Origin: a phage | Length of the DNA stretch: 64,000 bases | Assembly (NCBI GenBank): GCA_017686895.1 | Contig: GCA_017686895.1_4521.1 | Direction: 5' to 3' (one strand) | In this document: positions 2,234 through 42,393 of the stretch, piece by piece | How the letters are laid out: every line of letters starts with the position of its first letter | How positions within the stretch are numbered: the stretch's first letter is position 1 | Notes under the pieces: model-generated | Databases searched by the model: none | What the model was told of the DNA's origin: nothing | Seen by the model: only the letters and a program-made list of their open reading frames with translations | Program-made: the position numbers and the translations under genes

Positions 2234-2457
2234 GCGTATTAACAGAAACTTTGATTAATGACCTGCGTCTAGCTGGTTACGAAGTTGGTACAAATAGCCT
2301 AGGTCTTCCTCAGATTGAAGGTCCTGGATTTATTCTAGAATACGAATTCAAACAATGGTGGTTATATGCTACGGTTGATGATGCATTGAATATTGATTTC
2401 GTCGACCAATTTGATTCATTGGATGCTGCTTTATTTGCCGCAAAGGAAATAGAATGA
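2230..2457 (+). CDS. hypothetical protein
   Basis: 75-aa ORF, ATGA overlap with upstream ORF. Confidence 0.35.
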   Translation: MSVLTETLINDLRLAGYEVGTNSLGLPQIEGPGFILEYEFKQWWLYATVDDALNIDFVDQFDSLDAALFAAKEIE

Positions 2458-2612
2458 AACTATCTCGAATCGCTATAACCGAAGAAAAGTATGGTGAATT
2501 TTAAGTCGACAACTTTATGAAAGTTACGTATCTTTGATAGTATCTCGTGCTTTAAGATAGGTCTCTAAATATTATGATATAATAGACCTATGAATTGAGC
2601 TAAGAGGTACTT

Positions 2613-3170
2613 ATGACTGAACAAAAACCTAAAAATAACTATGTGAATAATAAAGAGCTTCTCGCCGCTATAATCGAGTGGAAAAAGGAGCTCTTAAATA
2701 ATAAAGACCCAAACAAAATTATTCGTCAGAATGATACCATCGGTTTAGCAATTATGCTTATCGCCGAAGGCCTGTCCAAACGTTTCAACTTTTCAGGATA
2801 TACCCAGTCTTGGAAGCAGGAGATGATTGCAGATGGGATTGAAGCCTCTATTAAGGGACTTCATAATTTCGACGAAACTAAGTACAATAACCCACATGCA
2901 TACATAACTCGAGCTTGTTTTAATGCTTTTGTCCAACGTATCAAAAAAGAACGTAAGGAAGTTGCAAAGAAATATAGTTACTTCGTTCATAATGTCTACG
3001 ACAGTCATGACGATGATATGGTAGCGTTGGTAGATGAAACGTTTATTCAAGACATCTACGATAAAATGACGCATTATGAAGAATCCGCTTATAAAGCTCC
3101 TGGGGCTGAAAAGAAGGAAGTTGTTAGCGATTCGCCTAGTTTGGATTTTTTATATGAGGATGACAATTGA
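2613..3170 (+). CDS. 55: late-transcription sigma factor gp55
   Basis: N-terminus [27 protein letters not shown] closely matches T4 gp55 as recalled; 185 aa; synteny 55-47-46. Confidence 0.9.
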
Positions 3171-3369
3171 CATCTCTAACTACTTAGAAGAACCTTTTGA
3201 CGAAGCAATCCCTTATTTGGTAAAACTGTTGGGTCGTGAATTTAAAATTAATTTTGACATCGACCCTTTGAACCCACATGACGTGTCATTTTCAATAAAT
3301 GGGACTCCAGTTGAGTACGAGTTCTGTATTGAAGAGGATGGACGTTTTTATTTTAATTTAATGAGATAA
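3160..3369 (+). CDS. hypothetical protein
   Basis: ORF at the position where T4 has alpha-gt; start chosen at ATG after GAGG. Confidence 0.3.
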
Positions 3370-3370
3370 T

Positions 3371-3694
3371 ATGACTACCGATATTATTGAAAATAAAGAA
3401 GCAGAAGATGCAGTAGCTAAAATGCTACAAGAAATCCAAAAGAAAAATGAAGCTGAAGCACGTAAAAAATCCGAAAAGATTCTTAAAAAGAATCGTTTTG
3501 AACTAAACCGTCTTTATGCACATGCTCAAGAAGCAGCAATTCAAAACAACTTCGAAGCTTACGAATATGCTATTAAGAAATCTCGGGATATTCTACGACA
3601 ACCATATAATGACAAGTTAATTAAAATCCAGTGGATTACTACTCGTCAGGCTATTGAGGACATCATTAATGGCGCTAGTTCAAACAAAGTTTAA
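3371..3694 (+). CDS. hypothetical protein
   Basis: 107-aa ORF, charged helical-looking sequence. Confidence 0.4.
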   Translation: MTTDIIENKEAEDAVAKMLQEIQKKNEAEARKKSEKILKKNRFELNRLYAHAQEAAIQNNFEAYEYAIKKSRDILRQPYNDKLIKIQWITTRQAIEDIINGASSNKV

Positions 3695-3875
3695 ACGTCT
3701 GAAGCTGAACGCAGGGTTCACCCTTAAATTGGGAGGTCCTCTTTGTGTTAAAATTTCTGAAAAGGAATATCACGACGGTTCTATTACAGAAATTTGTCCG
3801 CCTATTGTAAAGGCGGACCCAAAACAACTCGTGTGGGTCGATTCATTTCAAGTTAAGAAATGGTGGAAACGATGA
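3669..3875 (+). CDS. hypothetical protein
   Basis: ATG at 3669 with GAGGA SD; overlaps end of upstream ORF. Confidence 0.3.
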   Translation: MALVQTKFKRLKLNAGFTLKLGGPLCVKISEKEYHDGSITEICPPIVKADPKQLVWVDSFQVKKWWKR

Positions 3876-3913
3876 GAGAAATCGATTTAGGTATTTTCTG
3901 AGAGGTGCTTATG

Positions 3914-4087
3914 CGTGACGAACATCCCGACTTCTGAAAATTTCGATAAAATCCGTAAAGGCAAAGCAGAAAGAACGAGACGTTTTAAAGAGTCTTATGA
4001 TAAAGCTAAAGCCGAAGGAACTATTACATACAAGCCCATTCGATTTAAAAGTTCAAATGAGCCTCTGTACGGTGTACTATGTGGATA
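3914..4087 (+). CDS. hypothetical small basic protein (GTG start)
   Basis: 57-aa ORF hand-translated; GAGG SD upstream; followed by terminator hairpin; below the track size cut-off. Confidence 0.2.
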
Positions 4088-4088
4088 G

Positions 4089-4112
4089 GAACTCTTCGGA
4101 GTTCCTTTTTTG
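4089..4112 (+). terminator. intrinsic terminator-like hairpin (UUCG loop) + T-run
   Basis: ggaactc-ttcg-gagttcc followed by tttttt. Confidence 0.55.
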
Positions 4113-4157: not shown

Positions 4158-5177
4158 ATGAAAATTTTGCACTTAGGCGACTTCCATATCGGAGTCAAAC
4201 AAGACGACCCATGGGTTCAAGATATTCAACGTGATGGTATTCGACAAGCAATTGAATACTCTAAGAAACACGGGATTAAAACTTGGATTCAGTACGGTGA
4301 TTGGTTTGACGTCCGTAAAGCAATAACACATCGTACAATGGAATTCAATCGTGAAATCGTTGATATGATTTCTAAAGCAGGCATTCACGTTCATGTCACG
4401 ATAGGAAACCATGACATGGCGTTTAAGAATACAATAACACCTAACACTGTTTCTGAATTGTTAACTCAATTTGAAAACTTTACTATTTACGAGCATCCAA
4501 CTACTGTAGATTTTGACGGATGTCTGATTGATATCGTTCCATGGATGTGTGAAGAAAATACAGGTGAAATCTTAGAGCACATCAAGACTTCTTCTGCTGC
4601 GTATTGTGTTGGTCACTGGGAACTGAACGGCTTTTATTTCTATAAAGGAATGAAGTCCCATGGGCTTGAACCTGATTTCTTAAAGACTTATAAACAAGTC
4701 TGGTCCGGCCACTTCCACACAATCTCTGAAGCTGCTAACGTCAAATATATTGGGACACCATGGACCCTTACTGCAGGTGATGAGAATGATCCTCGCGGAT
4801 TCTGGGTATTTGACACTGACGTTGAACGTATGGAATTTATTCCTAATGAAACAACATGGCATCGACGAATCACTTATCCATTTAAAGGCAAAATCAATTA
4901 TTCTGATTATACTAATCTAGCCGTACGTGTTATAGTATCAGAAATTGATTCAGAGTTGACTAAGTTTGAATCTGAACTTGAAAAAGTAGTTCACTCTCTT
5001 CGTATGGTTTCTAAAGTTGATAACAGTGTTGAATCTGATGACGACCAGGAAATCGAGATTAAATCACTTCAAGATATCATTAAAGAATATATTGACGCGA
5101 TTCCAGATATCTCAGACGAAGACAGAGAAGCGCTGGTCAAATATTCCAACGAACTTTATATTGAGGCAACACAATGA
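4158..5177 (+). CDS. 47: recombination endonuclease subunit gp47 (Mre11-like)
   Basis: MKILHLGDFHIG phosphoesterase motif; high similarity to T4 gp47 along its length as recalled. Confidence 0.92.
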   Translation: MKILHLGDFHIGVKQDDPWVQDIQRDGIRQAIEYSKKHGIKTWIQYGDWFDVRKAITHRTMEFNREIVDMISKAGIHVHVTIGNHDMAFKNTITPNTVSELLTQFENFTIYEHPTTVDFDGCLIDIVPWMCEENTGEILEHIKTSSAAYCVGHWELNGFYFYKGMKSHGLEPDFLKTYKQVWSGHFHTISEAANVKYIGTPWTLTAGDENDPRGFWVFDTDVERMEFIPNETTWHRRITYPFKGKINYSDYTNLAVRVIVSEIDSELTKFESELEKVVHSLRMVSKVDNSVESDDDQEIEIKSLQDIIKEYIDAIPDISDEDREALVKYSNELYIEATQ

Positions 5178-5431
5178 CTTTAGATGAATTTAATAATGCT
5201 GGGCTCGGGCTTGAAGTTGAAATAGACGTTAAAGATGATGATGGATTCGAGAACACTATCAAGTATTGGATTGAGCCATTACGCGTTGAAGGCAATGAAG
5301 TTAAAGCAGTTCATGTCTGCACCGACTGGGCTATTGAATTTAGCTTTAATATAATGGACAACGATACTCCTGGCTCTATTCTTAAAATGGCTGAAGCGTG
5401 TATTGAGGATGCGTATAATGACGAAGACTGA
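5174..5431 (+). CDS. hypothetical protein
   Basis: 85-aa acidic ORF between 47 and 46. Confidence 0.4.
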   Translation: MTLDEFNNAGLGLEVEIDVKDDDGFENTIKYWIEPLRVEGNEVKAVHVCTDWAIEFSFNIMDNDTPGSILKMAEACIEDAYNDED

Positions 5432-7597: not shown

Positions 7598-8014
7598 ATG
7601 TTTACTACTGCTAAAGGTTTTACCGCTGCTGATCTGAAAGTTACTTCTATCCGTACTGACGCTAACCCGCATAACCATAATCGTGTTCGTAAAGCATGGG
7701 TCCTGCATTGTGATGACGCAAGTGCTAAAAAGCTTCAATCTTTGCCACAAGAAACTCGTTTTATGATTTATGGTTTTATTGATAACGATGTATCTGATAT
7801 GTGGATTCATCTGATGCGTAAGCACTATAAAGATTCTATTGAAGCAGGTGGAAAAATCGTTCTTGATAAAGATGGTTCTGAGCGCCTGGAAGATTTCTAC
7901 TGTGTTGATGCCGACGAACAATTAATTGCAGCTGGCGAAATTGTTGCTTCTAAAATTCCAGAATATATTGAATCACTGCCTGAAGCTATTAAAAAGCAGA
8001 TGGTCGCTGCTTGA
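7598..8014 (+). CDS. hypothetical protein (possible RpbA by position only)
   Basis: 138-aa ORF upstream of gene 45 where T4 has rpbA; sequence identity not verified. Confidence 0.35.
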   Translation: MFTTAKGFTAADLKVTSIRTDANPHNHNRVRKAWVLHCDDASAKKLQSLPQETRFMIYGFIDNDVSDMWIHLMRKHYKDSIEAGGKIVLDKDGSERLEDFYCVDADEQLIAAGEIVASKIPEYIESLPEAIKKQMVAA

Positions 8015-8910
8015 TAATTATGAATTTAATATATCTTATAACCTTTTATAATCGTGAGATTAAAAATGAATACCCGTGTTATTATATAGGTTCTAAAGTT
8101 TCGTGTCATTTTAATGGAAAGGATATTATTGAAGATTCTACCGGTAAAATATATACCGGTAGTGTTAATTCCTCGTATTCTCCTTTATATAACAGATTAA
8201 TAGACCAAGGCGAATATTCTGTAAAAATTTTAGGCGAAACCACATTAGACCCTAGAAGAATAGAAAGACTATTCCAACTCAATGTTAAAGCCGTTTCAAA
8301 TGAAAAATATTTTAATAAGGCTTATGCTAACGAGAAGTCTAGAATATCAGCTAAAGGATATGCACCGTATAAAAATTTAAAAACAGGCAAAATAGTAAAA
8401 CTTTCTAAAAACGAAATAAACGAAGATTACGTCGGTGTTAGAAAAAATTGCAAATTGTCGGAGAATCATTTAAACGCAATTAGAGAATTTCAAAAAACAT
8501 ATTGGACCAAAGAACGAAGAGAGAAAGTTTCTATTCGTTCTAAAAAAATGTTTAACGATAGAGATTTTGCTTTAAAATTTAAAGATATAATGAATTCTCC
8601 TAATGTTAAAGATAAAATAAAAATATCTAAAACATTGTATTGGTCTAAACCTGAAAATAGAGCAAAGGCCTCTATCGCAGCTTCGAAAAGAAATGCAACC
8701 AAAGAATTTAAGGATAAATTCAGAAAATCTAAAGCTAGAGGTACATGGATATTTCATGAACAAAAATTAAAGGAATTGTGGATTGCTTTAGGAAAACCAA
8801 GTTATATTACATTTAGAAAACATGCAATTCAGCATGGTTTTAATGATGAATCATACCAAGGTGCTATCCGGTCTTGGACAAATTATTATGCTAATAGGAA
8901 ACCTAAATGA
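8011..8910 (+). CDS. homing-endonuclease-like protein (GIY-YIG-like N-terminus, NUMOD-like C-terminal repeats)
   Basis: N-term LIYLITFYNREIKNEYPCYYIGSK resembles GIY..YIG; Lys-rich C-terminal S-x-x-x-K/R repeats; markedly AT-rich relative to flanking genes. Confidence 0.5.
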   Translation: MIIMNLIYLITFYNREIKNEYPCYYIGSKVSCHFNGKDIIEDSTGKIYTGSVNSSYSPLYNRLIDQGEYSVKILGETTLDPRRIERLFQLNVKAVSNEKYFNKAYANEKSRISAKGYAPYKNLKTGKIVKLSKNEINEDYVGVRKNCKLSENHLNAIREFQKTYWTKERREKVSIRSKKMFNDRDFALKFKDIMNSPNVKDKIKISKTLYWSKPENRAKASIAASKRNATKEFKDKFRKSKARGTWIFHEQKLKELWIALGKPSYITFRKHAIQHGFNDESYQGAIRSWTNYYANRKPK

Positions 8911-9593
8911 AACTTAGCCGTGAAACCGTAAATATTCTGAAAAACTTCGCTTCTATTAACTCTGGCATTCTGCTGAGTCAAGGTAAATTTATTATGACTC
9001 GTGCAGTTAATGGCACCACTTATGCGGAAGCAAATATCTCTGATGAAATTGATTTTGACGTAGCACTTTATGATTTGAATAGCTTCTTAAGCATTTTGAG
9101 TCTAGTGTCTGACGATGCTGAAATTTCAATGCACACTGATGGTAATATTAAAATTGCAGACACACGTTCCACAGTTTATTGGCCTGCCGCTGACAAGAGC
9201 ACCATTGTTTTTCCTAATAAGCCAATTCAATTCCCAGTGGCTTCTGTGATTACTGAAATTAAAGCCGAAGACCTTCAACAATTGCTTCGAGTTTCACGTG
9301 GTCTTCAAATTGATACAATTGCTATTACAAATAAAGATGGTAAAATTGTTATCAATGGCTATAATAAAGTTGAAGATTCTGGACTAACTCGTCCTAAGTA
9401 TTCTTTGACTCTTACCGATTATGATGGTTCTAACAACTTTAACTTCGTAATCAATATGGCTAATATGAAAATCCAGCCAGGTAACTATAAAGTAATGTTG
9501 TGGGGAGCTGGTGATAAAGTTGCAGCCAAGTTTGAAAGCTCTCAAGTAAGTTATGTTATTGCAATGGAAGCCGATTCTACTCACGACTTCTAA
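8907..9593 (+). CDS. 45: sliding clamp gp45
   Basis: MKLSRETVNILKNFASINSGILL matches T4 gp45 as recalled; 228 aa. Confidence 0.93.
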   Translation: MKLSRETVNILKNFASINSGILLSQGKFIMTRAVNGTTYAEANISDEIDFDVALYDLNSFLSILSLVSDDAEISMHTDGNIKIADTRSTVYWPAADKSTIVFPNKPIQFPVASVITEIKAEDLQQLLRVSRGLQIDTIAITNKDGKIVINGYNKVEDSGLTRPKYSLTLTDYDGSNNFNFVINMANMKIQPGNYKVMLWGAGDKVAAKFESSQVSYVIAMEADSTHDF

Positions 9594-14400: not shown

Positions 14401-15036
14401 ATGAAAACTACACCAATCACTATCGCTATTGACGCAATCGTAAAACAAGCTTCTTCTTTGGCTACTATGGCCAAAGTAATTAGTCAAAACCCTGCTCGTT
14501 ATAATGCTATTCTAGAAACTCTTCGACGCCCTGGACTGAGTAATTATGAAAGCCGAGTAATTATTACAGGTGTTGGTAAGAACGCTAATATCGCAACTAA
14601 AGCTTCCGAGACTTTTGCTTCACTAGGTATTCCTAGCATGTATTTGAACACCGGGCATTATTCTCATGGCGACGCAGGGTTTATTGCACCTAATGATGTA
14701 TTAGTTCACATCAGTCGTTCTGGTAAGACTGAAGAAATGATAGGTGTTGCTAAACATCTTCGTATGATTCGTCCTCAGGTTAAACAGATTCTGTTACATT
14801 GTAACCCTGACATTCCGCAAGAATACGAAGCTCTTTTTGATTATACGTTCTGTACAGGCATCGCGGTAGAGGTTGATGAGAATTCTCTGGCTCCGACCAT
14901 GTCCACTACATTGTTGTTAGCGCTTATCGATACGTTTGCTATCAACCTTTCGTCTGAACGTGGATTTACCTCTAATGACTTCCTTAAGTTCCACCCTGGT
15001 GGTGCACTAGGTGCCATGTTACGAGGCGAACAATGA
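14401..15036 (+). CDS. SIS-domain sugar-phosphate isomerase, arabinose-5-phosphate isomerase (KdsD/GutQ)-like
   Basis: Motifs ETFASLGIP, HGDAGF, ISRSGKT resemble KdsD SIS domain; no CBS domains. Confidence 0.7.
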   Translation: MKTTPITIAIDAIVKQASSLATMAKVISQNPARYNAILETLRRPGLSNYESRVIITGVGKNANIATKASETFASLGIPSMYLNTGHYSHGDAGFIAPNDVLVHISRSGKTEEMIGVAKHLRMIRPQVKQILLHCNPDIPQEYEALFDYTFCTGIAVEVDENSLAPTMSTTLLLALIDTFAINLSSERGFTSNDFLKFHPGGALGAMLRGEQ

Positions 15037-15176
15037 AAGCAATAACAATAGGACTTTTACTATTGATGCTTGTCATGACTATCTACTGGAGCTTAACGGC
15101 TCCAGTAATGATTCCGACTCTTATAATCGGATGGATTATGATTGGACTACAAACAAAGTATGAATGCTTTAACTAG
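15033..15176 (+). CDS. small hydrophobic membrane peptide
   Basis: 47-aa ORF hand-translated (MKAITIGLLLLMLVMTIYW...); ATGA overlap with upstream stop; below track cut-off. Confidence 0.25.
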   Translation: MKAITIGLLLLMLVMTIYWSLTAPVMIPTLIIGWIMIGLQTKYECFN

Positions 15177-15217
15177 AATAGTGTACAATACACCTACTTA
15201 CCAATGAGGACCACAAC

Positions 15218-16903
15218 ATGAAAAAAGCTGTTATTCTTGGTGCTGGACTGGCAACTCGTTTGTATCCAATAACGCACCATATTCCTAAGGTGCTTGTTAA
15301 CTATAAACAAGACACTATTCTGAGCAATTTGTATACAATTTATTCTGACCTTGGTGCAGATGAAATTATTGTAGTAGTTCATTCAAAATTTGTTGAAACT
15401 GTTCGAGCTTATTGTGAGCAAGAAGGGTTCAATGTGACTATTCGTACAGTTGATGAAGCGTATGGTTCTGCTTATGCTCTTGCTAAATTATACAAAGATT
15501 TAGATGGCCATAACGTAATTGTTAACTGGTGTGATATTATTCCTGATTTTGGTTCATGGTCTTGGAATGTTAACGCAATCTATGTTAAGGGTGATGAATG
15601 TCGATATAATTTCGATGGTGAAAATATCACTAACGTAGGTTCAACAGGCGGTAATGTTGTAGGAATTTATCAGTTCAAAGACTGGGAATTCTATATGGGT
15701 TCTACTGATGAGGAAATTCATGAATACTGCAAAGGGCGTGATTTCGTAGAATTCCTTTACGGCAGTGCATTCAATAAATCAGAGCTTATGAATCTAATTG
15801 ATTTAGGTGATATGCCTAAACTTGAAAAAGCTCATGAAGTTCGTGAACTTAATCGTAGTTTTAATGCAGTTGAAATTGGTGAAGAAACTGTAACTAAATT
15901 CGCATTAACCGAACAGGGACGAGCTCTTCAGAAAGATGAGATTTCGTGGTATCTTAAAGTGAAATCAGATTCAGTTCCTCAGTTAGTTTCTGTTAATGAA
16001 AATAACTTTGAAATGGAACGCATTAAAGGTAAGCCAGCATTTGAATATATTAAATCCAAATCAAGTCTTGCTCGTCCACAAATTGTTGATGCAATTTTAG
16101 ATGCACTGAAATTCAGCACAGACACTTATTTTGTAAGTCCTGAAACTGTTCGTCGTGATTTCACTAAAGAATTCTATACGAAAGTTATTGATCGTTGTGA
16201 AAGCATTCAACCATTGATTGATTCATTTGGTAAAATCACACATGTGAACTACACTAAGATTGGACGTCTGAAGCCAATGCTGAAACAAGCTTTAGAACAC
16301 CTTATTCGTTATCATAACCGTTCTCAGGGACAGTACTCTGTTATTCATGGTGACCCGAACTTCAGTAATACTATGATTACTGATAACGGCGAAGTCAAGT
16401 TTATCGACCCTCGTGGATATTTTGGCGAAACCAAGATTTACGGGCCAAAATTGTACGATGAAGCTAAAGTGCTTTATGCTGTTTCAGGTTATGATGAATT
16501 CAATGCTAATCCGACCTGGGGACAGTTTACTATTGATGAAACAACTTGTAATGTGACTATTAACATCAATCCATTAATTTACAAATATGGAAAGATGAGT
16601 TCGTTTAACGAGTATCATCATTTGGCGGTGGCAATTATCTGGATTGCATTAGGTGGTTATTTCAAGAATAATCCACTTAAAGCGGTAGCCGCATATTATA
16701 AAGGTATGGAACTTCTGACTAAGCAATTACGCAACATGGGCCGTGTACTTCAAGACGGCTCTATTAGTTATGACGTAGCAGAACCTGTAACGGCTACTCT
16801 GATTACAAAAAATCCTGGTAAATGGGTACTAACTGATAAAGAAACTGGTGTTTCCTATCGTCCAATCGGTGGCGATATCACTCATCAATGGGAACGAATC
16901 TAA
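15218..16903 (+). CDS. bifunctional sugar-1-phosphate nucleotidyltransferase / anomeric sugar kinase-like protein
   Basis: N-term AVILGAGLATRL...PK nucleotidyltransferase signature; C-term HGDPNFSN...IDPRG resembles APH/choline-kinase catalytic loop. Confidence 0.65.
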   Translation: MKKAVILGAGLATRLYPITHHIPKVLVNYKQDTILSNLYTIYSDLGADEIIVVVHSKFVETVRAYCEQEGFNVTIRTVDEAYGSAYALAKLYKDLDGHNVIVNWCDIIPDFGSWSWNVNAIYVKGDECRYNFDGENITNVGSTGGNVVGIYQFKDWEFYMGSTDEEIHEYCKGRDFVEFLYGSAFNKSELMNLIDLGDMPKLEKAHEVRELNRSFNAVEIGEETVTKFALTEQGRALQKDEISWYLKVKSDSVPQLVSVNENNFEMERIKGKPAFEYIKSKSSLARPQIVDAILDALKFSTDTYFVSPETVRRDFTKEFYTKVIDRCESIQPLIDSFGKITHVNYTKIGRLKPMLKQALEHLIRYHNRSQGQYSVIHGDPNFSNTMITDNGEVKFIDPRGYFGETKIYGPKLYDEAKVLYAVSGYDEFNANPTWGQFTIDETTCNVTININPLIYKYGKMSSFNEYHHLAVAIIWIALGGYFKNNPLKAVAAYYKGMELLTKQLRNMGRVLQDGSISYDVAEPVTATLITKNPGKWVLTDKETGVSYRPIGGDITHQWERI

Positions 16904-17289
16904 TGCACCGTGTAGAAAACATGCTTAATCTTTGTTTTGATGTCGATGATTGTATAACAGAGTGGAATAACAATCGTGATTACGTGAACTTCAAACCAGA
17001 CGTCGAAATGGTGTCTGCCATTAATGCCCTGTATGATGCAGGGCATACCATAACGCTTTACACTGCTCGTGGTATGAAGTCAGTAGGTCCTGGTCGTATA
17101 GCAATTGACATTCTCCCAAGTCTGATTCAGAACTTGGCAAACATTGGCTTGAAGTACCATAATTTGCTAACACATAAACCAGTATATGATTGGATTATCG
17201 ACGACAAAGCTATGCGTCCTGACGAATTCAAAGCTCTTATGAATAAAGGCGAATTCGAAACATTTAAATCATATAAACCGAATCTATAA
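16903..17289 (+). CDS. HAD-superfamily phosphatase-like protein
   Basis: FDVDDCIT (DxD motif I), LYTARG, WIIDDK; start taken at ATG overlapping upstream stop. Confidence 0.45.
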   Translation: MHRVENMLNLCFDVDDCITEWNNNRDYVNFKPDVEMVSAINALYDAGHTITLYTARGMKSVGPGRIAIDILPSLIQNLANIGLKYHNLLTHKPVYDWIIDDKAMRPDEFKALMNKGEFETFKSYKPNL

Positions 17290-17335
17290 TAATTTAAGTA
17301 AGACCTGCAAAAACCATCGCATCAATTAACGCGAG

Positions 17336-18505
17336 ATGCAAAAAATGAATACTTTTAAAATCGGAACGAATTTTGATTTAGCTCTTCTTGATAAAATCGT
17401 AGAGCTCAATAAAACCTATCCTAATAGCTTGATAAACGAAGTATATGGCTCTACAAGAGAAATGGCTTTTGTAGCAGCCAGACCTGATTTTAGGCTTCCT
17501 GACGTTGACAAAAAGATGTTAGAAGATTACGTTAAACGTTGTAACGAATTAGGTATTTGCTTTAACTATACACTCAACACGATAAATCCTGGTTCAAAAA
17601 GAGAACTAGTTGAGTGGAAGAAGAAAGCTATTCAGGATTATGTTCAGTATCTTTGGTCAATAGGCGTATGGCGTATTACTATCGCTAACCCTGTTGTTAT
17701 GGAAATTGTTCGTGAAGTCAATAAAGATATTGAGATTGAAGTTTCAACAATTCTACATGTCGATGCGGTAACTCAAATCAAATACTTACATGACCAATAT
17801 AACATCAAAAAGGTCTGTTGCGGAATTCATAAGAACCGTTCAGTTTCTTTCCTGAAGCGTGCAGCAGAGTTTTGCAATAAGAACAATATAATATTTGAAG
17901 TTCTTGTAAATGAGTTCTGTTCTAATGCTGGTAAAGGGTATACAACACATTGTAGTTATCGTGACTCTTGCTATATTTTCCATAGTACTGATGTTACAGC
18001 TGATGATGCTAAATCCTTAAATGGATATCCAATGCAACACTGCATTAAAGCTCGTGATACAGACCCATTTAACTGGTTGAGAACTCGTTTTGTTCGTCCT
18101 CAAGATTTGAAACTTTATAATGATATTGGTATCACTCAATTCAAAGTTTCAGGACGTACAGGTAGCACAGACTACATTTTGAAAGTTCTTGAAGCATACG
18201 CTTCTGAAAAGTTTGAAGGTAATTTGTTAGAACTGTGGAAGCCTTTAGAGACTATTTTCACTCTTGAAAATGAGACTGAGTTTTCACATACAGTAAATAT
18301 TGAAACCTCTTTGTTAGATGGCTTTTTAGAAAAAAGGTGGTTCAGACATCCAGATTTTGATTGTGCTAATGAAATCTGTGGGTCAACGTGTACATATTGT
18401 GAAAGGTATTATAAACGTCAATTATCTAAAAACGGGTTAGCAGAAAACTCCATATCTATTATTGATATAACTAACTCTGATGACGCTTTGAGGTACCCGG
18501 AATGA
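17336..18505 (+). CDS. peptidase-U32-family-like Fe-S protein
   Basis: N-terminal layout and Cys-rich EFCSNAGKGYTTHCSYRDSC segment resemble U32 family; C-terminal CxxxCxxC cluster. Confidence 0.5.
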   Translation: MQKMNTFKIGTNFDLALLDKIVELNKTYPNSLINEVYGSTREMAFVAARPDFRLPDVDKKMLEDYVKRCNELGICFNYTLNTINPGSKRELVEWKKKAIQDYVQYLWSIGVWRITIANPVVMEIVREVNKDIEIEVSTILHVDAVTQIKYLHDQYNIKKVCCGIHKNRSVSFLKRAAEFCNKNNIIFEVLVNEFCSNAGKGYTTHCSYRDSCYIFHSTDVTADDAKSLNGYPMQHCIKARDTDPFNWLRTRFVRPQDLKLYNDIGITQFKVSGRTGSTDYILKVLEAYASEKFEGNLLELWKPLETIFTLENETEFSHTVNIETSLLDGFLEKRWFRHPDFDCANEICGSTCTYCERYYKRQLSKNGLAENSISIIDITNSDDALRYPE

Positions 18506-18741
18506 TTTCTAGAAAAAGTTTTAATTATAAACTTAACGAAGAGATTTTGACTATGAAACTGAACACTAACGAACAAATTCTTAAAAAGGCCCTTATGGGC
18601 CTGTTTGAAACCAAAGCGGCTAAAGTGATTAAAGAACCTGTTCAATTGGAATACTACACTGATGCATTCCTTCATAGTGTTCTTGGAAGTATAGATTCTG
18701 AAGCTTTACGTTATATCAACATTGTCAAGAAATTCAAATAA
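18502..18741 (+). CDS. hypothetical protein
   Basis: 79-aa ORF, ATGA overlap. Confidence 0.3.
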   Translation: MISRKSFNYKLNEEILTMKLNTNEQILKKALMGLFETKAAKVIKEPVQLEYYTDAFLHSVLGSIDSEALRYINIVKKFK

Positions 18742-18764
18742 GCTTTATGAATTGAGTATATAAT
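18741..18764 (+). promoter_or_regulatory. middle-promoter-like element upstream of 42-like gene
   Basis: aGCTTTA box, 11-nt spacer, TATAAT. Confidence 0.35.
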
Positions 18765-18783
18765 AAATTGTATTGAGGTAAAT

Positions 18784-19500
18784 ATGGGAAAACATAACAC
18801 AATGAAATATATCAAAGCCGCAGATTTTCAAACCGCATTTAAAGCAGTCAATCGTGAAATTTTAGAAAACCCCGAATTCGTAACTGATTCTCGTATTGGA
18901 CGTTGTAATGAAATTGGGTCTATGACAGTAGTTGTTGACACTCCATCATCATTCAAAATGACCGACCCACGTATTAACCGCATCTCTTATGAATATGCCG
19001 AAGACTTCTGGAAGTTTATGATTTCTGGTGGTACCAACGCAGAAGAAGCGTTTAAGGCATATCCTAATGTCGCTAAATTTATTTCTAAACCAAAATCAGA
19101 TGTTTTGCCGGCGAACTTCAACACTTTCTATGGTCCTCGCATTGCGGCCCAATTACCAACTCTTCTAAAAGAACTTAAAGAAAAACCTAACTCTCGAAGA
19201 GTTGTGTTCCAAATTCTAGAAAGTTCTGATCAGGCTTTGCTTGATTCGGACGAAACACTTGAATATCCATGTACTGACTCAGTAACTTATTATATTCGTG
19301 ATGGTAAGCTTTATACCCACTGTCATATGCGTTCTCAGAACTGTGCTGTTGTTATGCAGTTGGATTTTTATCTCCAAGGAAAATTACTTCATTATATCGC
19401 TAACGAATGCGGTGTAGAAGTTGGTGATTATACTCATACCATGGTAAGTGCCCATGTGTTTGAACGTGATTTTGATTATGTTAAAGGATTCCTTGACTAA
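18784..19500 (+). CDS. thymidylate-synthase-family pyrimidine hydroxymethylase (gene 42-like dCMP hydroxymethylase)
   Basis: PCTDSV and HCHMRSQN resemble TS-family catalytic Cys and (Q/M)RS motifs; position and dCTPase at 29023 support hmC synthesis; divergent from T4 gp42. Confidence 0.65.
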   Translation: MGKHNTMKYIKAADFQTAFKAVNREILENPEFVTDSRIGRCNEIGSMTVVVDTPSSFKMTDPRINRISYEYAEDFWKFMISGGTNAEEAFKAYPNVAKFISKPKSDVLPANFNTFYGPRIAAQLPTLLKELKEKPNSRRVVFQILESSDQALLDSDETLEYPCTDSVTYYIRDGKLYTHCHMRSQNCAVVMQLDFYLQGKLLHYIANECGVEVGDYTHTMVSAHVFERDFDYVKGFLD

Positions 19501-20399
19501 TGGCTATTTTCCGCGTACCAATCTTGAGTATGCGGTCTTATGAAACTGGACAGTATGCTATCCTTAAGGATGGCAACTTCCAACTTCATTTGCACCGTGC
19601 TAATCCAGGTGATGTGATTACATATCCACGTAATGCATCTGATATTAAAGAATGCGAACGTCTTTTCCCAGAATTTAAGTTTGTTCCATTATGGTATAAA
19701 GATAACGCGTATAACACTCGTAAATATTTCTGGTCTGAAAATGAATTTGTGGTTGATTCATTAATTGCTTATTATGATTGTGATTTTCTAATCACAGATA
19801 TCACCGGATATGACGGCGCTTTTGATGTGGAATTCAATTTCAATATCACTGCAGACCCTAATAAACCACGTTTTTATATTGACGAATTCTTAAAAACTGA
19901 TATGTTGTCGGTTAATCGTTCACTTCAAACTACTGTGTTGAATGAACGTCAAAAAGAAGTGCTGGTTAACGCAGGTGCAGATGGTAATAAGATTATCGTA
20001 ACGCAGAAAGTTATACGTCCTTCCATCATGCAGCGTCTTGTAGGTGATTTGGCTCCTATTCATCTAGATGGTATTTTTCATCCATTTCGAATTAGTGACC
20101 CGTGCTATCGTTTTGAACAAGTGGTTGAATGTGCAATTCAATTAGGCCAACCGCTTTATATAACCGATCCAAATAATAGCTTCGACAGAAATAAGTATCC
20201 TGAAGAAGCATTGATTCGAATTTTTAAACCAACTAAAACTGAGTACTATCAAATTCTTAAAGGACGTCCGAAGATTCAATATTTCGAAAATCCTGAAGAA
20301 GTATTCCATCCAGGTCTTGGTGAGTTCATCTACTTTAATGCTTTAATTTCTTCGCCGTATAATATACCTAAATATGAAGATGTCGTAATCGAGGAATAA
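19500..20399 (+). CDS. hypothetical protein at the T4 beta-gt position
   Basis: 299-aa ORF between 42-like and uvsX; no recognisable motif. Confidence 0.45.
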   Translation: MAIFRVPILSMRSYETGQYAILKDGNFQLHLHRANPGDVITYPRNASDIKECERLFPEFKFVPLWYKDNAYNTRKYFWSENEFVVDSLIAYYDCDFLITDITGYDGAFDVEFNFNITADPNKPRFYIDEFLKTDMLSVNRSLQTTVLNERQKEVLVNAGADGNKIIVTQKVIRPSIMQRLVGDLAPIHLDGIFHPFRISDPCYRFEQVVECAIQLGQPLYITDPNNSFDRNKYPEEALIRIFKPTKTEYYQILKGRPKIQYFENPEEVFHPGLGEFIYFNALISSPYNIPKYEDVVIEE

Positions 20400-20400
20400 A

Positions 20401-20949
20401 ATGGCTAAAATTATTTTAGTAGATGGCCCGGATAATGCTGGTAAAACAACTTTCATTAATGACATAATGGAAATTAGTGAAAGATATGTAAAGATTGATT
20501 TCCCTAAACGAACAGTTGATGGACGTTTCGATGTTAAGTCTCGAAATGAAGTTGGCTGTTTCGAAACTATGTTGAATTATTTAGACCCTACTAAGATTTA
20601 TCTATTAGACCGTGGATATATTAGTAACTGGGTTTATGGACGTATTCGACAAGATGCGGACTCGGTTCTTGACGTTTATGAACAGGATTATGTTCGTCTT
20701 TGCCAAAACCATGATGTGTTCACAATTATTTTAACACGTAACGAAATGACTGAAAGTTTTGAAGACGACCTTATTACTTTGTCTTCATTCGGTTTTAATA
20801 CAGTAATTTCACATTTTGAAGAGTTTGCAATTCATAACGAAATCCAAACGTATCAATTACTTAATCATGATGGTGCTAACAAAGTTATAGGATTTAATGC
20901 AAGCGAACGTAATAATTTGATTACAGAAATCATCAAATGGGCTCGTTAA
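20401..20949 (+). CDS. P-loop nucleoside/nucleotide kinase-like protein
   Basis: Walker A GPDNAGKTT and LDRGY motif resemble thymidylate/dNMP kinase fold. Confidence 0.5.
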   Translation: MAKIILVDGPDNAGKTTFINDIMEISERYVKIDFPKRTVDGRFDVKSRNEVGCFETMLNYLDPTKIYLLDRGYISNWVYGRIRQDADSVLDVYEQDYVRLCQNHDVFTIILTRNEMTESFEDDLITLSSFGFNTVISHFEEFAIHNEIQTYQLLNHDGANKVIGFNASERNNLITEIIKWAR

Positions 20950-39340: not shown

Positions 39341-41158
39341 ATGATTAAAAACGAAATTAAGGTATTGTCAGATGTAGAACATATTAAGAAACGTAGTGGT
39401 ATGTATATTGGTTCTTCGGCTAAAGAAGCACATGAGCGTTTTTTGTTTGGTAAATATCAACAAGTTGAATATGTTCCTGGTCTGGTTAAATTAATCGATG
39501 AGATTATTGACAACTCGGTTGATGAAGCTATTCGTACATCATTTAAGTTTGCAAATAAAATTGATGTGCAAATTAAAAATAATCAAGTTTCGGTGGAAGA
39601 TAACGGACGTGGTATTCCTCAAGGTTTAGTTACTGACCAAACAGGTGAACAAATTCCTGGGCCTGTAGCAGCCTGGACTATTCCAAAGGCCGGTGGTAAC
39701 TTTGGTGATGATTCTGAACGCAAGACTGGTGGTATGAACGGCGTCGGGAGTAGTTTAACTAATATCTTCTCTACGTTGTTTACAGGCATCACGTCAGATG
39801 GCGAAAATGAAATCACTGTTAACTGTTCAAACGGAATGGAAAACAAATCATGGTCTTCTAAGAAATCTAAAGGTAAAGGCACTAAAGTAATCTTCACTCC
39901 TGATTTCACTTCATTTGAAGAGAATAATTTATCTCAAATTTATTTAGATATTACTTTAGACCGACTTCAAACATTGGCAGTTGTTTATCCTGATATCAAG
40001 TTCACATTTAATGGTAAAAAGGTTGATGGTAATTTTAAACGATTTGCTAAACAATTTGGTGAAGATAACATCATTCAAGAAAATGATAAAGTCTCTATAG
40101 CATTCACAACATCACCAGATGGCTTCCGTCATTTAACTTATGTGAATAACATCCATACTAAAAATGGTGGTCATCATGTTGAATGTGTAATGGATGATAT
40201 TTGCGAACATCTTTTACCGGGTATTAAAAAGAAATATAAGGGTATTGAAGTCACTAAAGCTCGTGTTAAAGAATGCCTCACAATGTTGATGTTTATTAGA
40301 GACATGAGCAATATGCGTTTTGATTCTCAGACTAAAGAACGTTTAACGTCAACGTATGGTGATATTCGTAATCATATCCAATTAGATGCTAAGAAAATTG
40401 CTCAGGCACTTCTTAAAAACGAAGCCTTGATTATGCCTATTGTTGAAGCAGCATTAGCTCGTAAATTGGCAGCAGAAAAGGCTGCAGAAACTAAAGCAGC
40501 TAAAAAGGCAACTAAAGCTAAGGTTCATAAGCATATTAAAGCTAACCGATGTGGTAAAGATGCAGATACGACATTGTTTTTAACAGAAGGTGATTCGGCA
40601 ATTGGTTATCTCATTGATGTTCGTGACCGTGAACTACACGGTGGATTCCCATTACGTGGTAAGGTGATGAATAGCTGGGGTATGTCATATGCTGATATGA
40701 TGAAGAACAAAGAGCTCTTTGATATCTGTGCTATCACAGGTCTTATTCTTGGTGAAAAGGCAGAGAATACGAACTATCGTAATATTGCAATTATGACTGA
40801 TGCAGATCACGACGGTCTTGGAAGTATCTATCCGGCTTTGCTTGCTTTCTTTAGTAATTGGCCTGAATTGTTTGAACAAGGACGTATTCGCTTTGTTAAA
40901 ACGCCTGTAATTATTGCACAAATTGGCAAAACTCAAAAATGGTTTTATACTGTAGCTGAGTATGAAGAAGTTAAAGATACACTGCCTAAGCATAGTATTC
41001 GATACATCAAGGGATTAGGCTCCCTTGAAAAGTCAGAATATCGTGAAATGATTCAGAACCCTGTGTACGACGTAGTTAAACTTCCTGAAAATTGGAAAGA
41101 ACTCTTTGAAATGTTGATGGGTGATGATTCAGAACTTCGTAAAGAATGGATGTCCTAA
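39341..41158 (+). CDS. 39: DNA topoisomerase II large subunit gp39 (GyrB-like ATPase), continuous 39+60 equivalent
   Basis: 605 aa; MIKNEIKVLSDVEHIKKRSGMYIGS; Toprim region present; single uninterrupted ORF. Confidence 0.92.
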   Translation: MIKNEIKVLSDVEHIKKRSGMYIGSSAKEAHERFLFGKYQQVEYVPGLVKLIDEIIDNSVDEAIRTSFKFANKIDVQIKNNQVSVEDNGRGIPQGLVTDQTGEQIPGPVAAWTIPKAGGNFGDDSERKTGGMNGVGSSLTNIFSTLFTGITSDGENEITVNCSNGMENKSWSSKKSKGKGTKVIFTPDFTSFEENNLSQIYLDITLDRLQTLAVVYPDIKFTFNGKKVDGNFKRFAKQFGEDNIIQENDKVSIAFTTSPDGFRHLTYVNNIHTKNGGHHVECVMDDICEHLLPGIKKKYKGIEVTKARVKECLTMLMFIRDMSNMRFDSQTKERLTSTYGDIRNHIQLDAKKIAQALLKNEALIMPIVEAALARKLAAEKAAETKAAKKATKAKVHKHIKANRCGKDADTTLFLTEGDSAIGYLIDVRDRELHGGFPLRGKVMNSWGMSYADMMKNKELFDICAITGLILGEKAENTNYRNIAIMTDADHDGLGSIYPALLAFFSNWPELFEQGRIRFVKTPVIIAQIGKTQKWFYTVAEYEEVKDTLPKHSIRYIKGLGSLEKSEYREMIQNPVYDVVKLPENWKELFEMLMGDDSELRKEWMS

Positions 41159-41186
41159 GCTCCTTCGGGAGCTTCATTTTAATTTT
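41159..41186 (+). terminator. terminator-like hairpin after gene 39
   Basis: gctcc-ttcg-ggagc then T-rich tract. Confidence 0.5.
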
Positions 41187-41200
41187 AATAAGGCTTAATT

Positions 41201-42301
41201 ATGAAAGTTATGTTTATCCCATCTCGTGCAGTCCCATTTAATCCTGACCGTGTACAAGGTGGTCTTGAAGCAGTACATTTAAATGTGTTGAAATATCTTG
41301 TGTCCATCGGTGCTGATATTGATTATATCGGCTTTGATAATGACGTGTTTGGTGATTGGAAAGTTACACACCATCCTGTCGGCCATCTGACTAAATTCAG
41401 TCTAGGTATGAGTTATACTATGGCTCGTAAGATTGTTGAACTAGCCGGCATCCATGAATACGATTTTGTTGTTACTATGGAACCGACTAAACTAACCGTT
41501 CAGGCAATTAAAGACGCAGGTCTCTCTAAAGTTCATAAGAATTTTATGGCAACACCATTTGAACCGGTATCTCGTGGCATTGTTCAAATTTGGGACCAGA
41601 CTATTCAAATTCATAAGAATGGTGGTAAGAGTTATGCTCCTACTAAAGCCTTCCGTGAATTTGAACGCAAATATTGTTATATGACTTCAGGTCTGACTGA
41701 CAAAATTGATTATGATTATTGGCGAGCAAATCCGTTGTTTGAAGCCGAAGATTATCCGGTTATTTGTTTGAATGAGAAACCTGAAGTTCTTCCGGCGACT
41801 GATCTGATTATTAGTGCACAACGTTATGACACTAAAATGCGTCGTACTGATGTTGCTCTTGAAGCGATTAAAGCACTAGGCGAAAATGGTGTAGGATACT
41901 GTCCTAGTAAATGGGCGCCACCGGCTAAGTATCCTGTTATTATTGATGCTCCACATAGTGAAATCATGGAACGTCTTAAAACAGCTAAAGCACTTATCAA
42001 TACGTGTCCTGACACAGGTACGGTAGAGAATAGTTCTATTGAAGCCATCTCTAAAGGTGTCCCTGTAATCCAGTTAGTTTTTAAGGATTATCCTCATGCG
42101 ACATTTGAATACGACCCAGATACTGTGCGTGTAGAAATTGATTCCTCTACTCCTAAGAAAGAAGTAGTTGCGCTTTACACAAAAGCTGTATTAGAATTCA
42201 CTGACACATACGAAGCTCGAGTTAAACGTGCTGAAGCCGTATGGAAGAAGTATAACCGAGATGCAGTTGTTGCGATGTGGGATAAAATCTTCACAGCGTA
42301 A
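41201..42301 (+). CDS. GT-B fold glycosyltransferase (GT4-like), candidate DNA sugar transferase
   Basis: N-term MKVMFIPS...QGGLEAVHLNVLKYL and C-term TGTVENSSIEAISKGVPVI (E-x7-E motif). Confidence 0.55.
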   Translation: MKVMFIPSRAVPFNPDRVQGGLEAVHLNVLKYLVSIGADIDYIGFDNDVFGDWKVTHHPVGHLTKFSLGMSYTMARKIVELAGIHEYDFVVTMEPTKLTVQAIKDAGLSKVHKNFMATPFEPVSRGIVQIWDQTIQIHKNGGKSYAPTKAFREFERKYCYMTSGLTDKIDYDYWRANPLFEAEDYPVICLNEKPEVLPATDLIISAQRYDTKMRRTDVALEAIKALGENGVGYCPSKWAPPAKYPVIIDAPHSEIMERLKTAKALINTCPDTGTVENSSIEAISKGVPVIQLVFKDYPHATFEYDPDTVRVEIDSSTPKKEVVALYTKAVLEFTDTYEARVKRAEAVWKKYNRDAVVAMWDKIFTA

Positions 42302-42393
42302 ATCCTGAATAGCCTGAGGCACTATTACACATAAGATGATAGATTATATGGTCTTTAGTAATAGTGCCCTAGGAATCTACTGAAGAGAATATT

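Follow-up and report, generated by a model that had tools for sequence, protein, structure and literature searches.

The 366-aa GT-B glycosyltransferase encoded between gene 39 and rIIA.1 is probably the accessory DNA arabinosyltransferase of Mosigvirus (RB69 gp3/ORF003c; HY126 glycosyltransferase), which adds the second arabinose to arabinosylated 5-hydroxycytosine (5hoC). The window, that is, the whole stretch of 64,000 nt that was analysed, belongs to a Mosigvirus (RB69-like) and matches over 150 genomes of Escherichia and Shigella phages at a nucleotide identity of about 98%. The gene itself is already known: a transferase proposal dates from 2018, the protein had been crystallised by 2025, and it was placed in a pathway in 2025–2026. 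The present analysis corrects the annotation (5hoC in place of hydroxymethylcytosine, hmC, as the acceptor base; the second step in place of the first; a pair of GT-B proteins encoded in the window) and adds phyletic evidence, obtained independently, on how these two proteins divide the work.

The coordinates of the gene and of related features are given in Table 1. The open reading frame was found exactly where the earlier note had placed it, and starts with ATG. Open frames as long as this one are expected by chance at about 1e-6 (window, 37% G+C), and the dN/dS of 0.09–0.13, calculated against the HY126 and AV109 orthologs, indicates purifying selection, so that the gene can be regarded as functional. 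The terminator-like hairpin upstream of it is only suggestive, as chance alone is expected to give one such site in the stretch. The gene does lie between gene 39 and rIIA, the order being fused gene 39, the transferase gene, a 66-aa rIIA.1 homolog (PHROG 1683) and the 737-aa rIIA. That T4 has no counterpart at this position was confirmed, the T4 junction reading rIIA-rIIA.1-60-60.1-mobA-39 with no transferase, and none was found at the same junction of the Dhakavirus JS98. The gene thus has the Mosigvirus-type location (gene 39/rIIA.1), a site that is empty in both T4 and JS98.

Table 1. Features of the transferase locus and of the arabinosylation island, with positions in the window.
Feature	Position	Strand	Remarks
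SIS-domain arabinose-5-phosphate isomerase (RB69 gp55-like)	14401..15036	+	First step towards the UDP-Araf donor; sequence match and literature
Bifunctional NTP-transferase/kinase, 561 aa (RB69 gp52:53, HY126 AfhE-like)	15218..16903	+	Would form Araf-1,5-P2, then UDP-Araf; literature
Putative sugar phosphatase, 133 aa (RB69 gp51/HY126 AfhF; PHROG 1238)	16888..17289	+	HAD-phosphatase position; assigned by position
U32-peptidase-like protein (RB69 gp50-like)	17336..18505	+	Conserved in the cluster
ThyA-family 5-hydroxy-dCMP synthase (RB69 gp48 ortholog)	18784..19500	+	98.7% identity; near-identical to PDB 9IQC/9IR2/9IQU; makes the 5hoC acceptor base
In-island GT-B fold protein, 299 aa (RB69 gp46:47, DLP3 gp79, Thanatos TH1_063 family; PHROG 3891)	19500..20399	+	Proposed first (alpha) arabinosyltransferase
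Thymidylate-kinase-like nucleotide kinase, 182 aa (RB69 gp45-like)	20401..20949	+	Presumed to phosphorylate 5hodCMP
Gene 39, single 605-aa ORF	39341..41158	+	Directly 5' of the transferase gene; equals the split T4 genes 39 and 60, fused
Terminator-like hairpin AAGCTCC-TTCG-GGAGCTT, then T-rich tail	41157..41174	+	Between gene 39 and the transferase gene
AAGG, Shine–Dalgarno-like sequence	41190..41193	+	7 nt 5' of the transferase ATG; read from sequence
GT-B glycosyltransferase gene, 366 aa	41201..42301	+	Ortholog of RB69 ORF003c/gp3 and HY126 glycosyltransferase (PDB 9IQZ/9IR0)

The protein shares 98.9% identity with RB69 ORF003c/gp3 (NP_861693.1), 98.4% with the product of the HY126 gene and 98.1% with that of Bas46 (AlbertHofmann), where the ortholog is annotated as 'putative hmC-arabinosyltransferase'. 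The RB69 and HY126 proteins correspond to it over all 366 aa (98–99% identity), occupy the same gene 39/rIIA.1 site in the same type of genome with the same island, and differ from it by only 4–6 substitutions, none at a family-invariant position. The whole sequence (aa 1–366) is matched by PHROG 8302, a group of unknown function, at E = 6e-222. It is also about 99% identical to two PDB entries released on 2025-07-16, 9IQZ ('phage HY126 glycosyltransferase', apo form) and 9IR0 (the same, 'with UDP'), and the PDB chain has all four substitutions by which HY126 differs from the window. The nearby PDB codes 9IQC, 9IQU and 9IR2 match the ThyA homolog of the window, from which we infer that all five entries form one deposition series; its most likely source is He et al. 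2026 (Nat Chem Biol), the paper cited by Lee et al. 2026 for HY126 crystal structures. The GenBank translation of HY126 (PP658200.1, excerpt positions 3001–4101) has L288-G289 in place of the invariant P288-V289 seen in the PDB chain, the window and all family members, and is probably affected by a local sequence error of that record. The family is small, with 11 representatives among 1.84 billion proteins. Searching PDB sequences with the family profile (E ≤ 10) returned 9IQZ alone, and the same profile, used to look for paralogs, matched nothing else in the window.

Two Rossmann-like β/α/β domains with a cleft between them identify the fold as GT-B, although the AF2 model, based on an alignment of six sequences, is of moderate quality (pLDDT 65). 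The earlier description of a GT-B protein with a GT4-like N-terminus therefore stands as regards the fold and the QGGLEAV sequence (aa 19–25), but the sequence diverges strongly, and a Pfam-A scan (E ≤ 10) matched no family, GT4 models included (neither Glycos_transf_1 nor Glyco_trans_4). The C-terminal E-x7-E motif was a misreading. The sequence quoted for it, ENSSIEAISKGVPVI, is present at aa 276–290, but the spacing is E276-x4-E281 and is invariant across the family, while the sole literal E-x7-E lies in the N-domain (aa 86–94). In an alignment of 11 family members, reaching down to 35% identity, the invariant residues include G20-G21-L22, Q207-R208-x-D210...R214, N267-T268-C269 and the block G273-T274-x-E276..S279-x-E281-A282-I283..G286-x-P288-V289, all of which are present in the window protein.

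The genome also carries the complete 5hodCMP synthase/UDP-Araf cluster (14401–20949), an island of seven ORFs. The earlier note had assigned the transferase to a DNA sugar pathway fed by this island, and this agrees with the proposal of Thomas et al. 2018 for the RB69 ortholog. The U32-like protein has been kept within arabinosylation clusters from Mosigvirus to the Shewanella phage Thanatos (TH1_065), and was tentatively termed a 'sugar or heterocycle reductase' by Lee et al. 2026; TH1_065 was considered as a hidden relative of the transferase and ruled out, being U32-like. In the pathway proposed here, the island would provide 5-hydroxy-dCMP by means of the ThyA-family flavoenzyme, and UDP-D-arabinofuranose from ribulose-5-P. 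Cytosine in phage DNA would be replaced by 5hoC, and an alpha linkage would join the first arabinose to O5 of the base, a step for which the in-island GT-B protein is the most likely enzyme. The gene 39/rIIA.1 transferase, a UDP-binding GT-B protein, would then move the second Araf from UDP-Araf to O3 of the first sugar. The expected product, β-D-Araf-(1→3)-α-D-Araf-5-hydroxy-dC, is the major modified base of RB69-type DNA, and the bulkier glycan may give wider protection from DNA-targeting defences. The attribution of the second step to the gene 39/rIIA.1 transferase instead of the in-island protein is inferred, as are the regio- and stereochemistry given above.

The gene 39/rIIA.1 transferase had been singled out as the strongest candidate in the window for sugar transfer to the base. 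It is not the only candidate, and the in-island GT-B protein is probably the better one for base-proximal transfer. Its ORF lies directly after the ThyA homolog and before uvsX, which is the position of the T4 β-gt gene relative to gene 42 and uvsX. The protein has no Pfam match and no PDB sequence match, but its predicted model folds confidently as GT-B (pLDDT 94.5), and the Foldseek matches include MshA, UDP-GlcNAc 2-epimerases (among the best) and, weakly, 9IR0 (E = 4.6e-5). The two GT-B proteins of the window belong to the same arabinosylation pathway, but the in-island protein is shorter and far more widespread, and no sequence or profile similarity was detectable between their families (hhalign probability <1% with shallow profiles, Neff 1.6). 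In the proposal of Lee et al. 2026, RB69 gp46:47 and DLP3 gp79 act as arabinosyltransferase 1, and 'beta-arabinosyltransferase 2' is RB69 gp3. The Durham Collection paper makes the same division for the Mosigvirus NP, where the second transferase is identified by its location, flanked by rIIA and the topoisomerase gene; the second-step assignment is graded 'proposed' or 'hypothesized' in these papers. In the RB69 GenBank record, gp46:47 is split by a reported sequencing error, and the ortholog in the window is intact. Thanatos TH1_063 (excerpt positions 4495–5397), which the profile of the in-island family matches at E = 5e-115, has been reported (PMC12838424) to make UDP-xylose from UTP and xylose-1-P, with no transfer to DNA, the DNA tested being unmodified. 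This pyrophosphorylase report conflicts with the putative role of the in-island protein as first transferase. In the literature consulted, the description of TH1_063 as a UDP-xylose pyrophosphorylase and the proposal of a first DNA arabinosyltransferase by Lee et al. 2026 are unreconciled. A search for a third glycosyltransferase upstream of gene 47 (the T4 α-gt position) returned no ORF of at least 230 aa, and the other large unannotated ORFs of the window are homing-endonuclease-like and Srd-like. One further ORF of 299 aa (8011–8910, + strand, TTG start as listed) lies between the gene 46 and gene 44 homologs in the kilobase of lowest G+C (30%, nt 8001–9000); its N-terminal 140 aa match the homing-endonuclease PHROG 7504 (E = 3e-16), and it is probably a mobile endonuclease insertion.

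The phyletic distribution of the two families supports a division of labour in which the in-island protein acts first and the gene 39/rIIA.1 transferase second. The in-island family was found in 349 records of the phage collection, covering all arabinosylating lineages (Mosigvirus, Dhakavirus, phages of Klebsiella, Enterobacter, Edwardsiella, Yersinia, Pectobacterium, Serratia, Proteus, Providencia and Acinetobacter, and Shewanella phage Thanatos). The family of the gene 39/rIIA.1 transferase was found in 212 records, and only in Mosigvirus (one copy), T4-like phages of Acinetobacter (two copies) and a single Tegunavirus record. The homolog in that record shows less than 60% identity and falls outside the Mosigvirus and Acinetobacter groups; if it is real, more than one arabinose would be expected in the DNA of that phage. 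Thanatos DNA carries a single pentose, that of RB69, NP and Bas46/47 is di-arabinosylated and that of DLP3 tri-arabinosylated, so that the copy number of the family (zero, one and two, respectively) rises in step with the number of sugars added after the first. That the family is confined to lineages whose DNA bears two arabinoses (with one copy) or three (with two) fits a chain-extending β-arabinofuranosyltransferase. Consistent with this, DLP3 gp76 and gp77 together transferred a third Araf from UDP-Araf onto arabinosylated RB69 DNA in vitro, and the individual transferases had no activity on bare 5hoC DNA (Lee et al. 2026). Deletion of Aat in Bas46 yielded a mutant that had gained sensitivity to a defence system, a phenotype expected for an accessory step.

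Which base carries the sugars has been read differently over time. The arabinose that Thomas et al. 2018 detected in DNA of RB69 was taken by them to be part of arabinosyl-hmC, with ORF003c as the suggested transferase, and the annotations 'hmC-arabinosyltransferase' and 'DNA alpha-glucosyltransferase' persist in some GenBank records. The earlier note likewise had the sugar transferred onto hmC, which is wrong for this phage, because its ThyA homolog is 98.7% identical to the 5hodCMP synthase RB69 gp48 and only 24.8% identical to T4 gp42, and because the published chemistry of RB69-type DNA is that of arabinosyl-5-hydroxycytosine. The conversion of dCMP to 5hodCMP by RB69 gp48 has been demonstrated by experiment (Lee et al. 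2026). Later work by MS/MS and NMR established the modifications of RB69 and NP DNA as mono- and di-arabinosylated 5-hydroxy-dC, the latter being β-D-Araf-(1→3)-α-D-Araf-O5-cytosine with no methylene bridge, and the Durham Collection paper explicitly calls the hmC assignment 'erroneous'. That the protein glycosylates hmC in DNA, in the manner of T4 α-gt and β-gt, is thus already refuted by published chemistry and almost certainly incorrect.

A different assignment of steps, in which the gene 39/rIIA.1 protein would itself be the base-proximal transferase, moving Araf from UDP-Araf to the 5-hydroxyl of 5hoC in DNA, and the in-island protein a sugar-nucleotide enzyme, appears unlikely, yet several observations are in its favour. 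It was the original proposal for RB69 ORF003c (Thomas et al. 2018), it would accommodate the in vitro pyrophosphorylase activity of TH1_063 (PMC12838424) and the epimerases among the best Foldseek matches of the in-island protein, and it was the ortholog of the gene 39/rIIA.1 protein that was crystallised with UDP. In addition, the first step has so far not been reconstituted, and may take place on the nucleotide instead of DNA (Lee et al. 2026). Against this, more than 130 phage records have both the in-island GT-B and the 5hodCMP synthase/UDP-Araf cluster but lack any homolog of the 366-aa protein. Thanatos is among them, and its DNA still carries a pentose on cytosine, although no GT-fold protein besides TH1_063 was found in its cluster. 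The correlation of copy number with extra sugars, and the action of the DLP3 homologs on DNA that is already arabinosylated, also argue for the second step. An acceptor other than DNA (host LPS or another glycan, lipid or protein) might be suggested by the closest structural neighbours, the GT4-type enzymes PimA, WaaG and BshA, all of which use lipid, LPS or small-molecule acceptors. Such a role is most improbable given the strict co-occurrence of the family with the DNA arabinosylation cluster (the Acinetobacter homologs are even located inside it), the modification of DNA by the DLP3 homologs in vitro and the placement of the gene in the early/replication region.

Characterised relatives of the accessory arabinosyltransferase occur in Acinetobacter phage DLP3. 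DLP3 gp77 and gp76 (β-arabinosyltransferases 2 and 3) belong to the same family, with 42.6% and 40.3% full-length identity, and share the GGL loop, the QRxD...R motif and the NTC..GTxE..S.EAI..G.PV block. They differ in being tandem copies inside the sugar cluster, whereas the window has one copy about 21 kb away, and both are needed for the third arabinose, whereas RB69-type DNA stops at two. The T4 α- and β-glucosyltransferases are, similarly, phage GT-B enzymes that use a UDP-sugar and act after replication on a modified cytosine in DNA. Profile comparison of the family with T4 α-gt and β-gt gave hhalign probabilities below 1% for each, a weak negative given the shallow profile (Neff 1.6). 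Using deeper profiles, Thomas et al. 2018 reported HHpred similarity of RB69 ORF003c to 1XV5, which is read here as similarity at the level of fold only. The retaining GT4-type enzymes PimA, WaaG, BshA, MshA and tll1591 show 10–16% identity to the window protein, which has E-x4-E instead of E-x7-E, and which is proposed to use a furanose pentose as donor and a DNA-borne sugar as acceptor, giving a β-linked product. The β linkage assigned to the product is at odds with the retaining mechanism of the fold neighbours: starting from a UDP-α-D-Araf donor it would need inversion, so that the matter hinges on the anomeric configuration of the donor. One tentative and rather doubtful explanation is that the protein is an inverting, glycan-extending transferase on a retaining-type (GT4-like) GT-B scaffold, in which E-x7-E was remodelled to the invariant E-x4-E to suit a donor of the UDP-furanose type and an acceptor sugar tethered to DNA; the protein would then represent a distinct, phage-restricted glycosyltransferase family and not merely a divergent GT4.

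Restriction enzymes, the DNA glycosylase Brig1 and type I CRISPR-Cas are all blocked by arabinosylated 5-hydroxycytosine, a hypermodification of phage DNA that was defined only recently. Which defences a phage evades depends in part on how many arabinoses are attached. In Mosigvirus phages, which include many candidates for phage therapy, the second sugar is likely to be determined by the gene 39/rIIA.1 transferase.

Several other features of the locus were observed. Gene 39 of the window has neither the translational bypass of T4 gene 60 nor the mobA insertion. The JS98 junction that corresponds to the site of the Mosigvirus transferase gene contains an unannotated gap of about 590 bp from rIIA.1 to gene 39 (excerpt positions 2437–3024). 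In Escherichia phage AV109 (excerpt positions 661–1458), gene 39 is separated from the glycosyltransferase gene by an inserted homing endonuclease gene; of the Mosigvirus orthologs, the AV109 transferase also diverges most (95.1% identity), and its substitutions cluster at aa 101–191. Downstream of the transferase gene, the 92-nt spacer between its stop codon and rIIA.1 contains a perfect 11-bp inverted repeat, GGCACTATTAC ... GTAATAGTGCC (nt 42318–42328 and 42358–42368, + strand), with arms 29 nt apart, which was not called by the terminator scan.
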